64,000 nt of DNA from Escherichia phage CJY920, in sequence record PQ349265.1. One strand, 5' to 3'. Under the pieces are notes generated by a model. It searched no databases. It was not told the origin of the DNA and worked only from the letters and a program-made list of their open reading frames with translations. Shown here piece by piece: positions 32,235 to 33,834 of this stretch (positions are counted from its first letter, which is position 1; every line of letters begins with the position of its first letter). The translations under genes were made by a program, and so were the position numbers.

Positions 32235-32381
32235 TATAAATAATAATATGAATTGGGTGTCGGAATAATAAGTTAACCGAACAATTCTACGTGGTAGTCT
32301 ACAACTGAGAGATCTGTCGAAAGAAGATGAAATTCAGAAGAACGTGACTACCGAGTTTTAATCTCTAACGAGAATTTTTAA

Positions 32382-32630
32382 ATGATTAAACAATTACAAC
32401 ACGCTCTTGAACTGCAACGAAACGCATGGAATAATGGTCACGAAAACTATGGTGCATCTATTGATGTTGAAGCCGAAGCTCTTGAAATCCTGCGTTATTT
32501 CAAACATCTGAATCCTGCTCAAACTGCACTAGCTGCCGAGCTTCAGGAAAAAGATGAACTTAAGTATGCTAAGCCTCTGGCTTCTGCTGCACGAAAAGCA
32601 GTTCGTCACTTTGTGGTAACACTGAAATAA
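32382..32630 (+). CDS. rIII: RIII lysis-inhibition accessory protein (82 aa)
   Basis: 82 aa; MIKQLQHALELQRNAWNNGHENYG...; position after gene 31. Confidence 0.8.
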   Translation: MIKQLQHALELQRNAWNNGHENYGASIDVEAEALEILRYFKHLNPAQTALAAELQEKDELKYAKPLASAARKAVRHFVVTLK

Positions 32631-33028
32631 TTTATTGGAGAGTCACTGCCTTAGTGTGAAGTTAAAACGAGGAGCCGTCGAACTGTCTGATTAATGATTT
32701 GCGAATCATTATAGTTTTAAGACCCCGGCAGTTTTACGGTGTACCTCTTGAATGTTATTCTTATAGCGGCAAGTGCATGCTACCCCGAGGTGATGGCCAA
32801 TCGGGAGTACGCCTCAAGGCCTATATATCCATCAGTATATATCTTATCCTCGAGAAATCGAACCCGGAACCTTTAAGCTAACGGTGTGCAACAGATAAGA
32901 GCTATAAGGTATGATGACGGGTTTATGGTTATCCTGGTCGTTAAATATCCAAAAACCTATGTTCCCCTTGAGGGCTTGCGCAGGCAATGCCAATAAGTCC
33001 TGCATTTTCATTTAAAAGAGAATTTATA

Positions 33029-33205
33029 ATGGCAAAACAAGCTAAAGCAAAGAAAGCAGTTGAAAAGAAAGTTGGTGATTCTAAACGCGCTGGTTACAAG
33101 CGTGGGTCGAACTCTCGTATCAATCAAACTGTTGAGAAGATCATGCGCCGAGCACGTGCGGTTCTTCGAGATGATGCTTCTCGTTTTGGTAAGCAGAAAG
33201 CATAA
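33029..33205 (+). CDS. small highly basic protein (58 aa), function unknown
   Basis: MAKQAKAKKAVEKKVGDSKRAGYKRGSNSRINQTVEKIMRRARAVLRDDASRFGKQKA; SD-like AAAAGAG; followed by a terminator. Confidence 0.4.
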   Translation: MAKQAKAKKAVEKKVGDSKRAGYKRGSNSRINQTVEKIMRRARAVLRDDASRFGKQKA

Positions 33206-33210
33206 GTTGA

Positions 33211-33236
33211 GGACTCCTTCGGGAGTCCTTTTTTAT
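33211..33236 (+). terminator. intrinsic terminator
   Basis: GGACTCC-TTCG-GGAGTCC hairpin followed by TTTTTTATTTT. Confidence 0.75.
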
Positions 33237-33258
33237 TTTCCAAAGATTGCACAAAGTT

Positions 33259-33291
33259 GTTTACAGTATGGTTCCTTTGTGATAGTATTAT
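33259..33291 (+). promoter_or_regulatory. early promoter
   Basis: GTTTAC 33259-64 and TGATAGTATTAT -10 region. Confidence 0.5.
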
Positions 33292-33315: not shown

Positions 33316-33366
33316 ATGAAAACGATTAATCGGGTTACGGTCATTGGGCTGATGTTGAAATTATAA
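33316..33366 (+). CDS. 16-codon upstream ORF (MKTINRVTVIGLMLKL) with strong SD, candidate leader peptide
   Basis: AAGGAGA SD 5 nt upstream of the ATG; stop lies 9 nt before the SD-less ATG of the NADAR-like ORF. Confidence 0.35.
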   Translation: MKTINRVTVIGLMLKL

Positions 33367-33375
33367 GTATTGAAA

Positions 33376-33834
33376 ATGTCTGAGCTAGAAATAAGAAGCA
33401 ATTTTAGATGGCCATCATGTGCATTAAGCAATTTCGCCCAATGGCCTTTCGTTATGGATGGTATCCAATTTGGAGGTCTCGAAGGATTCCTCCAAGGATG
33501 TAAGGTGAAAAATGTTGAACAGCAAAGACGTATATTTGGGTTATCCGGGCTTGCCGCCCAACAAGCTGGAAGGTCTTATGCTAGAGCTCAGGACCGTGGC
33601 ACGTTGTTCTGGCTTGGAACTCCGTTTTCAAGATATTCCGAAGCATGGAAAGAATTATACACAAATGCATATTTTGAAGCAGCGATCCAAAACAGGGGTT
33701 TTCGTGATGCATTACAAGCCTCGAAAGGAAAAGTTTTGAAGCACAGCATGGCTAGTGGTCTAACAAAAGATGATACAATACTAACCGAAGCTGAATTTAT
33801 TGATGTGTTAAACCTATTAAGAGACTCTCTATGA
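33376..33834 (+). CDS. NADAR (YbiA/DUF1768-like) domain protein, 152 aa
   Basis: Motif LSNFAQWPFVMDGIQF...EGFLQGCK parallels E. coli YbiA FSNFAAWPIKVDGKTW...EHYFQAQK as recalled; ORF-track start is TTG 33370; ATG at 33376. Confidence 0.55.
   Translation: MSELEIRSNFRWPSCALSNFAQWPFVMDGIQFGGLEGFLQGCKVKNVEQQRRIFGLSGLAAQQAGRSYARAQDRGTLFWLGTPFSRYSEAWKELYTNAYFEAAIQNRGFRDALQASKGKVLKHSMASGLTKDDTILTEAEFIDVLNLLRDSL

Follow-up and report, generated by a model that had tools for sequence, protein, structure and literature searches.

The window analysed here, that is, the whole stretch of 64,000 nucleotides from Escherichia phage CJY920 (record PQ349265.1), contains a gene block whose order reads cd-31.2-31.1-31-rIII-30.9-30.3-30.2-30.1-DNA ligase. 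This is the order found in bacteriophage T4, the T4 reference carrying it on the other strand, and the sequence around 30.9 is 96-98% identical at the nucleotide level to T-even phages. Identity and gene order together indicate that the window is a segment of a Tequatrovirus genome. The ORF under study, 30.9, is adjoined upstream by rIII in the same orientation, with 398 nt between the rIII stop and the 30.9 ATG, and its position downstream of rIII and inside the block running from cd to DNA ligase is that of the gp30.9 family. The features of the rIII-30.9 region are collected in Table 1.

Table 1. Coordinates (positions in the window) and basis of the features around gene 30.9.
Feature	Position	Strand	Description and basis
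Three-tier RNA hairpin (motif 2)	32293..32352	+	internal loops UACAAC / AAGAACGUG, bulged G, GAAA apical loop
rIII, lysis-inhibition accessory protein	32382..32630	+	ORF list; annotation of near-identical phages and T4
Candidate T4-early-type promoter	32732..32761	+	TTTTAC-N18-TATTCT, TGn before -10; 1 mismatch to GTTTAC-N18-TAnnnT
137-nt RNA element (motif 1)	32766..32902	+	six helices, GNRA-capped hairpin; 153-bp indel vs T4; covariation
Remaining 30.9 leader	32903..33028	+	nearly identical in T4, partly alignable across genera
Gene 30.9 (ORF under study)	33029..33205	+	58-aa basic protein; ORF list, homology, dN/dS
Intrinsic terminator	33209..33240	+	9-bp stem, UUCG loop, T-run; annotated terminator in SA21RB
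Canonical T4 early promoter of the next gene(s)	33259..33288	+	GTTTAC-N18-TAGTAT; annotated early promoter in SA21RB

The ORF runs from an ATG at 33029 to a stop codon at 33203-33205 and encodes precisely the 58-aa product quoted in the initial annotation. That annotation had described the product as Lys/Arg-rich and strongly basic, a description borne out by 19 Lys plus Arg residues against 5 Asp plus Glu and by a pI of 11.4 (6.5 kDa, net charge +13.5). The protein is 100% identical to T4 gp30.9 (NP_049823, UniProt P17310), with zero non-synonymous differences and one synonymous difference between the coding sequences, and it occupies the same position, between rIII and 30.8/30.3. It matches PHROG 1427 with E=2.3e-31; the annotation of that group is 'unknown function'. 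The initial annotation could not place the protein in a family. This holds insofar as no functional family can be assigned, but placement as T4 gp30.9 / PHROG 1427 is possible. The protein is thus already catalogued as a T4 gene, uncharacterised, and the earlier description of it is accurate and not new.

Size alone is no proof that such an ORF is a gene, as the 6.5 kb around 30.9 are overlapped by 53 ORFs of 30 aa or more. Homologs of 30.9 were found by tblastn in 1,006 phage records, the phages having hosts in the genera Escherichia, Shigella, Klebsiella, Enterobacter, Salmonella, Yersinia, Serratia, Citrobacter, Erwinia and Proteus. When 19 distinct coding sequences were each compared with the window, dN/dS was 0.08-0.55 at dS values of up to ~2; to judge from these ratios, 30.9 is under purifying selection. 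In the protein alignment the MAKQ start is conserved across homologs, and the longer in-frame N-terminal readings are not conserved; these measure 72 aa in this phage and 68 aa in Klebsiella phages, and an old UniProt version of the product, listed as '11.1 kDa', has 97 aa. Because of the dN/dS values, the conserved start and the unconserved extensions, 30.9 is regarded as a real gene of ~58 codons, and the concern that homology might expose it as a fragment of a larger gene did not materialize. On these comparisons the ORF is almost certainly an ortholog of T4 gene 30.9 and truly coding.

A strong terminator directly after the gene had also been proposed, and it is present. A 9-bp GC-rich hairpin at 33209-33230, with a UUCG loop and -15.4 kcal/mol, starts 4 nt past the stop codon and is followed by a T-run of the form T6AT4 (TTTTTTATTTT). 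A hairpin and T-run likewise lie 3' of the 30.9 homologs in relatives L025 and L027, and the T4 locus has the same terminator and the same downstream early promoter. The terminator and this promoter make up a stem-loop plus early-promoter cassette at 33209-33288. Cassettes of this kind, called PeSL, reportedly flank small early ORFs in T4-type phages and are said to have been described by Arbiol et al. in 2010. The present locus resembles them in that the 30.9 terminator hairpin is followed directly by a canonical early promoter, and in lacking a 1.43-kb block of small ORFs just past the cassette, from the first codons of 30.8. It differs from them upstream of 30.9, where a long structured leader is found and no simple cassette. 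A match to Rfam Atu_C8, a Rhizobiales sRNA, at 33161-33244 (+) overlaps the ORF end and the terminator; at 31 bits against a gathering threshold of 50, it was dismissed as chance.

Past the cassette this phage differs from T4 in missing the downstream genes 30.8-30.4. About 1.43 kb is absent relative to T4 (T4 ~130237-128803), with the junction at ~33332-33338, and phage LH2 has the same arrangement. Missing are 30.7, 30.6, 30.5, most of 30.4 and all of 30.8 beyond the first codons; what remains is a 16-codon chimeric ORF at 33317-33367 (MKTINRVTVIGLMLKL). The 30.3 ortholog follows at 33370/33376-33834 (+): the ORF list starts it at a TTG (33370), and a start at the ATG at 33376 gives 152 aa as in T4.

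With regard to the 5' side, 30.9 had been taken for a stand-alone transcription unit. The strong terminator agrees with this view, but upstream there is a 398-nt structured leader following rIII, with a near-consensus early promoter only. A simple generic scan for sigma-70 promoters found none in the spacer, the nearest site lying right at the end of rIII. It missed the candidate early promoter of Table 1, which lies 268 nt upstream of 30.9 and is recognised from its consensus match alone. The predicted start of this promoter, at ~32768, falls on the first bases of the RNA element; its -10 lies on the margin of the 153-bp segment missing from T4, and the candidate promoter is not conserved in other genera. 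In several genera the rIII stop and the RNA element are separated by only 10-26 nt, which leaves too little room for a terminator plus a promoter, so that co-transcription with rIII is at least as likely. Probably, 30.9 closes the rIII-30.9 transcripts as their last cistron, and this lineage may have an extra internal promoter.

At 32693-32710 (+), 63 nt past the rIII stop, the AT-rich sequence AATGATT-TGCG-AATCATT can form a hairpin; it is followed by ATAGTTTT and is conserved in T4. It may be a weak terminator and, with the candidate early promoter, may constitute a stem-loop plus promoter cassette before the RNA element.

Between the RNA element and the start codon, the remaining leader comprises a conserved block at ~32912-32960, a small hairpin (CCCCUUGAGGG), and a hairpin GCAGG...CCUGC at 32980-33003 followed by AUUUUCAUUU. 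The Shine-Dalgarno sequence of 30.9 is weak (AGAGA, 33017-33021). Single-sequence folding of the 30.9 leader was no better than that of shuffled sequences (z = -0.6 and +0.4). This phage, Merlin, EcL8g and Cronus have the block at ~32912-32960 (GTATGATG..GGTTATC..CGTTAAA) on the 3' side of the 137-nt element, and JD18-type Klebsiella phages (L005 ~835-880) have it on the 5' side. This difference in block order indicates that modules of the rIII-30.9 spacer have been shuffled between genera.

When the rIII-30.9 spacer was aligned with that of T4, 153 extra bases were found in this phage, the remainder being almost identical. This leader segment, which carries the 137-nt element here and not in T4, is present in 404 phage records. 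Among the records sampled, its identity to the window is 91-96% in Klebsiella and Citrobacter phages and in most Enterobacter phages; Erwinia phage Cronus and Enterobacter phage EcL8g are lower, at 80-85%. In the same genomes, the coding sequences of rIII and gene 31 alongside it reach only 69-79% identity to the window. The RNA element is therefore more conserved than the flanking coding sequences across at least five Tevenvirinae genera (80-96% vs 69-79%).

From 15 distinct copies, RNAalifold predicted six helices with 39 pairs. The closing helix P1 has 3 bp; P2 is a long irregular hairpin and P3 a further hairpin; P4, of 7 bp, encloses the GNRA-capped hairpin P5 and the hairpin P6, which has a 15-nt loop. 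Among these 15 sequences 99.5% of the pairs are canonical, and compensatory changes occur in 10 of the 39. None of 500 shuffles matched these values, and sliding the partners by 1-3 columns gave at most one compensatory pair. A covariance model (R1), made from the alignment of these copies, then located 37 copies in 59 sources, one per locus, including a single copy in the window. With 24 distinct sequences, compensatory changes were counted in 21 of the 39 pairs and 99.4% of cells were paired, in an alignment that was fitted to the model and thus favours the structure somewhat. The G-U pairs and GNRA loops show that the functional strand is the + (mRNA) strand. The junctions AAG.GCAU and GCAACAGAU are invariant. 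In the sampled loci the element always lies between the rIII stop (at 10-136 nt) and the 30.9 start (at 72-184 nt), the 30.9 ORF being unlocated by a motif-based script in 3 of the 37 copies. The element is missing from roughly half of the 30.9 loci, T4 and several further lineages among them. Judged by covariation, the 137-nt RNA is very likely a genuine selected structure.

No counterpart of the element was found in Rfam 15 (at E<=1 for 3 kb and at E<=10 for 291 nt), in E. coli genomes, or in one genome each of 185,579 prokaryotic species, and ARAGORN detected no tRNA or tmRNA in it. Several readings of the element were discarded. First, a tRNA-like reading, suggested by the 7-bp acceptor-like stem, found nothing in ARAGORN or Rfam. 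Secondly, an H-type pseudoknot in the 5' domain was dropped since the nested hairpin P2 explains the same covariations. Thirdly, mimicry of rRNA was rejected: apparent short similarities to E. coli 16S rRNA were not confirmed, as BLAST matched the element to none of the E. coli genomes. Finally, T4 rnaC and rnaD (species 1 and 2) are likewise small structured T-even RNAs of ~120-140 nt, but they have another location and are not paralogs, the covariance model giving at most 2.6 bits on the rnaC/rnaD/tRNA region. With a riboswitch in mind, the leader was seen to have a conserved multi-helix fold, invariant junctions, and a weak hairpin plus a U-rich tract before the RBS; the distance from the element to the 30.9 start is variable (72-184 nt), and no alternative pairing emerged. 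In SA21RB a 'rho-independent terminator' is annotated at 32787-32825 (= L003 1488-1526). This is helix P2, which has no T-run after it; hairpin-finding software probably produced the annotation as an artefact.

A second structured RNA, motif 2, is found upstream of rIII (Table 1), with one copy in the window and one per related locus. Compensatory changes occur in 8 of its 17 pairs, and 95.5% of cells are paired. In Tequatrovirus (this phage, T4) and in Mosigvirus-like phages it stops ~27 nt short of the rIII start codon; in Jiaodavirus, Moonvirus, Karamvirus and Roskildevirus it is the 30.9 start codon that follows, after ~29 nt. Examples are found at L005 ~1060-1120 and L007 ~1119-1178. Motif 2 looks like a portable element beside a translation-initiation region. 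It is possible that RNA motifs described here were listed earlier, among the candidates of a 10,000-candidate viral RNA survey (PMC10690425) or in similar lists.

The shape of the protein was modelled with AF2 from the family alignment. Overall confidence is low (mean pLDDT 65) and differs along the chain: residues 1-24 have a pLDDT of ~48, and a single helix at 29-53 has block mean values of 83-87. The helix is amphipathic, its hydrophobic moment being 0.59 vs 0.26+/-0.13 for shuffles, with a hydrophobic stripe formed by I31, V35, I38, M39, A42, V45, L46 and F53. In a widened alignment that reaches down to ~32% identity, the columns M1, R20, Y23, K24, R25 and R30 are invariant, and G22, N28 and R43 are nearly so. 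Residues R20 to R30 form the family motif R-x-G-Y-K-R-x-x-N-x-R, which lies outside the predicted helix. In the predicted shape, gp30.9 would consist of a disordered Lys/Ala-rich arm, the invariant motif and one amphipathic helix. Nucleic-acid contact surfaces typically combine basic, aromatic and Asn residues as this motif does, and nucleic-acid binding is what the predicted shape appears to fit best. The initial annotation had suggested nucleic-acid or ribosome binding on the basis of composition, and with the predicted shape added this stays the most plausible conjecture.

The single gp30.9 sequence hit no family in Pfam, NCBIfam or PDB sequences; in particular, ribosomal-protein, RMF, Sra and hibernation-factor families gave no match in Pfam/NCBIfam at E<=10 or in PDB sequences. 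A sensitive profile search had been proposed as a check in the initial annotation. A profile of 27 gp30.9 homologs, run against 1.84 billion representative proteins in an exhaustive HMM search, gave 19 matches, all of them small basic orphan proteins (20-97 aa) except one 617-aa repetitive protein, which looks spurious. The small matches share S-K-R-A-G-Y-K-R-x-S-N-K-R-[IV]-[DN] and, after it, a helix patterned as L..QL.R.ARKAL. Relatives were thus found, but no named family was reached, and none of the 1.84 billion representatives forms a bridge from gp30.9 to a known family. Against the PDB, the sole match of the family profile, and the only pointer to a characterised protein, was one helix of the E. 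coli nucleoid-occlusion factor SlmA (residues 122-147; PDB 3nxc, 5hbu), which aligned at a marginal E=0.02 with gp30.9 residues 30-55 (window ~33116-33193; RINQLFERIEAQLRQVLRE vs RINQTVEKIMRRARAVLRD). The matched helix belongs to a 198-aa protein of TetR fold, whereas gp30.9 has no HTH or other matching region. With 26 residues aligned and a single predicted helix in 58 aa, kinship of gp30.9 with SlmA/TetR was rejected, the match being probably due to chance. Sub-threshold Pfam matches among the 27 members (Arc_C, LZ_Tnp_IS481, TetR_C) were set aside as amphipathic-helix noise.

Among distant homologs, the order 31-rIII-30.9 is retained in L025 and L083. In L085 the 30.9 homolog lies 29 nt after a gp31-like gene and before ligase; in L027 a ligase gene precedes the homolog, which forms a clean cassette complete with a strong SD, a terminator and a TTGACC-17-TATAAT promoter of its own. 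The sampled contexts of distant homologs are phage-like. Both RNA motifs are absent from the distant homologs in L027, L084 and L085.

For T4 itself, rIII and 30.9 are both classed as early, and time-resolved omics recorded an early 30.9 transcript with the protein undetected (PMC9697503 Table S2). With 19 K/R in 58 aa, such non-detection by tryptic MS would be expected. T4 30.9 was scored 'Non-essential', with insertions in 6 of 6 TA sites (HIDEN-SEQ, bioRxiv 10.1101/2025.11.20.689424), and 'Not Fit', dCas13d knock-down having no fitness effect (CRISPRi-ART, PMC11879866). Of its neighbours, rIII binds ribosomal protein S1 (PMC9409239), and T4 30.3 has been reported as adfN / AdfN, an anti-DarTG factor (2025 preprint). 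The literature searched, whose coverage of T4 papers was incomplete, gives no function for 30.9. In vivo expression of rIII and 30.9 is said to have been described by Driukas and Nivinskas in 2003.

We propose that gp30.9 would be made early in infection as the last cistron of one or more rIII-30.9 transcripts ending at 33209-33240, and that it would be dispensable for growth on laboratory E. coli. These two steps draw on the T4 literature for the early transcript and non-essentiality; the binding partner is something we infer only. The protein may bind nucleic acid directly, RNA more probably than DNA, a reading which we put forward tentatively and at somewhat less than an even chance. The disordered Lys/Ala-rich N-terminal arm and the invariant R20-x-G-Y-K-R-x-x-N28-x-R30 might both contribute to binding, and the 25-residue amphipathic, Arg-rich helix might become folded upon contact with its target or associate with another copy of itself. 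As candidate ligands, the two covarying GNRA-capped RNA structures on the same transcript come into consideration. A polyanionic partner is favoured because of the Lys/Ala-rich arm, the basic/aromatic/Asn motif and the Arg-rich amphipathic helix; homology provides no link to nucleic-acid binders in Pfam, NCBIfam, PDB or the 1.84 billion representatives. Since T4 has the identical protein and lacks motif 1, and the distant homologs in L027, L084 and L085 are accompanied by neither motif, motif 1 alone is not the RNA partner, and a dedicated pairing of RNA and protein is improbable as the full explanation.

The N proteins of phages lambda and P22 are Arg-rich-motif peptides that bind boxB hairpins with GNRA-like loops. 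Like them, gp30.9 is short and basic and is predicted to be mostly disordered with an Arg-rich helix, and GNRA hairpins are present on its transcript. Unlike them, it has no sequence similarity to N and no demonstrated nut-like arrangement, and its invariant RxGYKRxxNxR lies outside the predicted helix. By this analogy one might speculate that gp30.9 acts as an ARM-like peptide on the GNRA helices of its own transcript, in autoregulation, processing or read-through.

A highly basic disordered peptide could equally dock on an acidic host protein. On this reading, gp30.9 might be a host-takeover or counter-defence peptide that binds not nucleic acid but such a host protein, for example a nuclease or toxin active in defence, a protein of the nucleoid or of cell division, or a component of the RNA degradosome. 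The gene is early, accessory and non-essential and lies in a block rich in such functions, its neighbours being the anti-DarTG AdfN gene 30.3 and rIII, whose product binds S1 (PMC9409239). In addition, the hydrophobic stripe of the helix suits protein docking, and dispensability in K-12 is typical of conditional anti-defence genes. Nevertheless, gp30.9 has no similarity to known anti-defence proteins, its invariant residues are nearly all basic and so better suited to a polyanion than to a folded protein surface, and 30.9 insertions were not significantly depleted in one comparison row of HIDEN-SEQ (p=0.28). We consider docking on a host protein rather unlikely, while giving it a substantial minority chance.

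A special case of RNA binding would be association with the ribosome, gp30.9 sitting on rRNA and modulating translation. In size, charge and its combination of disorder with a helix, gp30.9 resembles small ribosomal or ribosome-associated proteins; its neighbour rIII acts on ribosomal protein S1, and early expression coincides with the period when host translation is taken over. This seems improbable, however, in view of the lack of any match to ribosomal-protein, RMF, Sra or hibernation-factor families in Pfam, NCBIfam or PDB (E<=10), and of homologs that are only small orphan proteins in sampled contexts that are phage-like. Finally, that the 58-aa ORF is incidental, the function residing in the RNA (leader, terminator) or in the 97-aa or 72-aa reading of which it would be a fragment, might be argued from the failure of proteomics to detect the T4 protein, from surrounding non-coding RNA that is conserved at least as well as the ORF and from the 97-aa '11.1 kDa' version still held in UniProt, but it is scarcely credible against dN/dS values far under 1 at dS up to ~2, a motif kept in homologs to ~32% identity in unrelated contexts, and N-terminal extensions that are not conserved.

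The protein gp30.9 itself adds little, as it is among the roughly half of T4 genes that have stood in databases for 30 years without a function. The interest lies in its context, where an unannotated 137-nt RNA occurs in one of the best-studied groups of viruses. The unexpected result is a strongly supported structured RNA without an Rfam counterpart, together with a relocatable hairpin, both of them outside the reading frame that was initially annotated. That the 137-nt element, and perhaps motif 2 (UACAAC / AAGAACGUG), constitutes a new phage RNA class functionally linked to gp30.9, by acting jointly with the protein or by controlling it, is a long shot; its role could be that of a cis-regulator, a processed stable RNA, a ribozyme or a decoy. 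T4, without the element, and this phage, with it, form a natural presence/absence pair. Such natural variants make the function of the RNA and its links to gp30.9, to rIII/S1 and to RegB testable by a swap of the 153 bp between near-identical phages. If the link between the RNA and gp30.9 is true, it would represent a previously unrecognised RNA-protein module in T-even phages.
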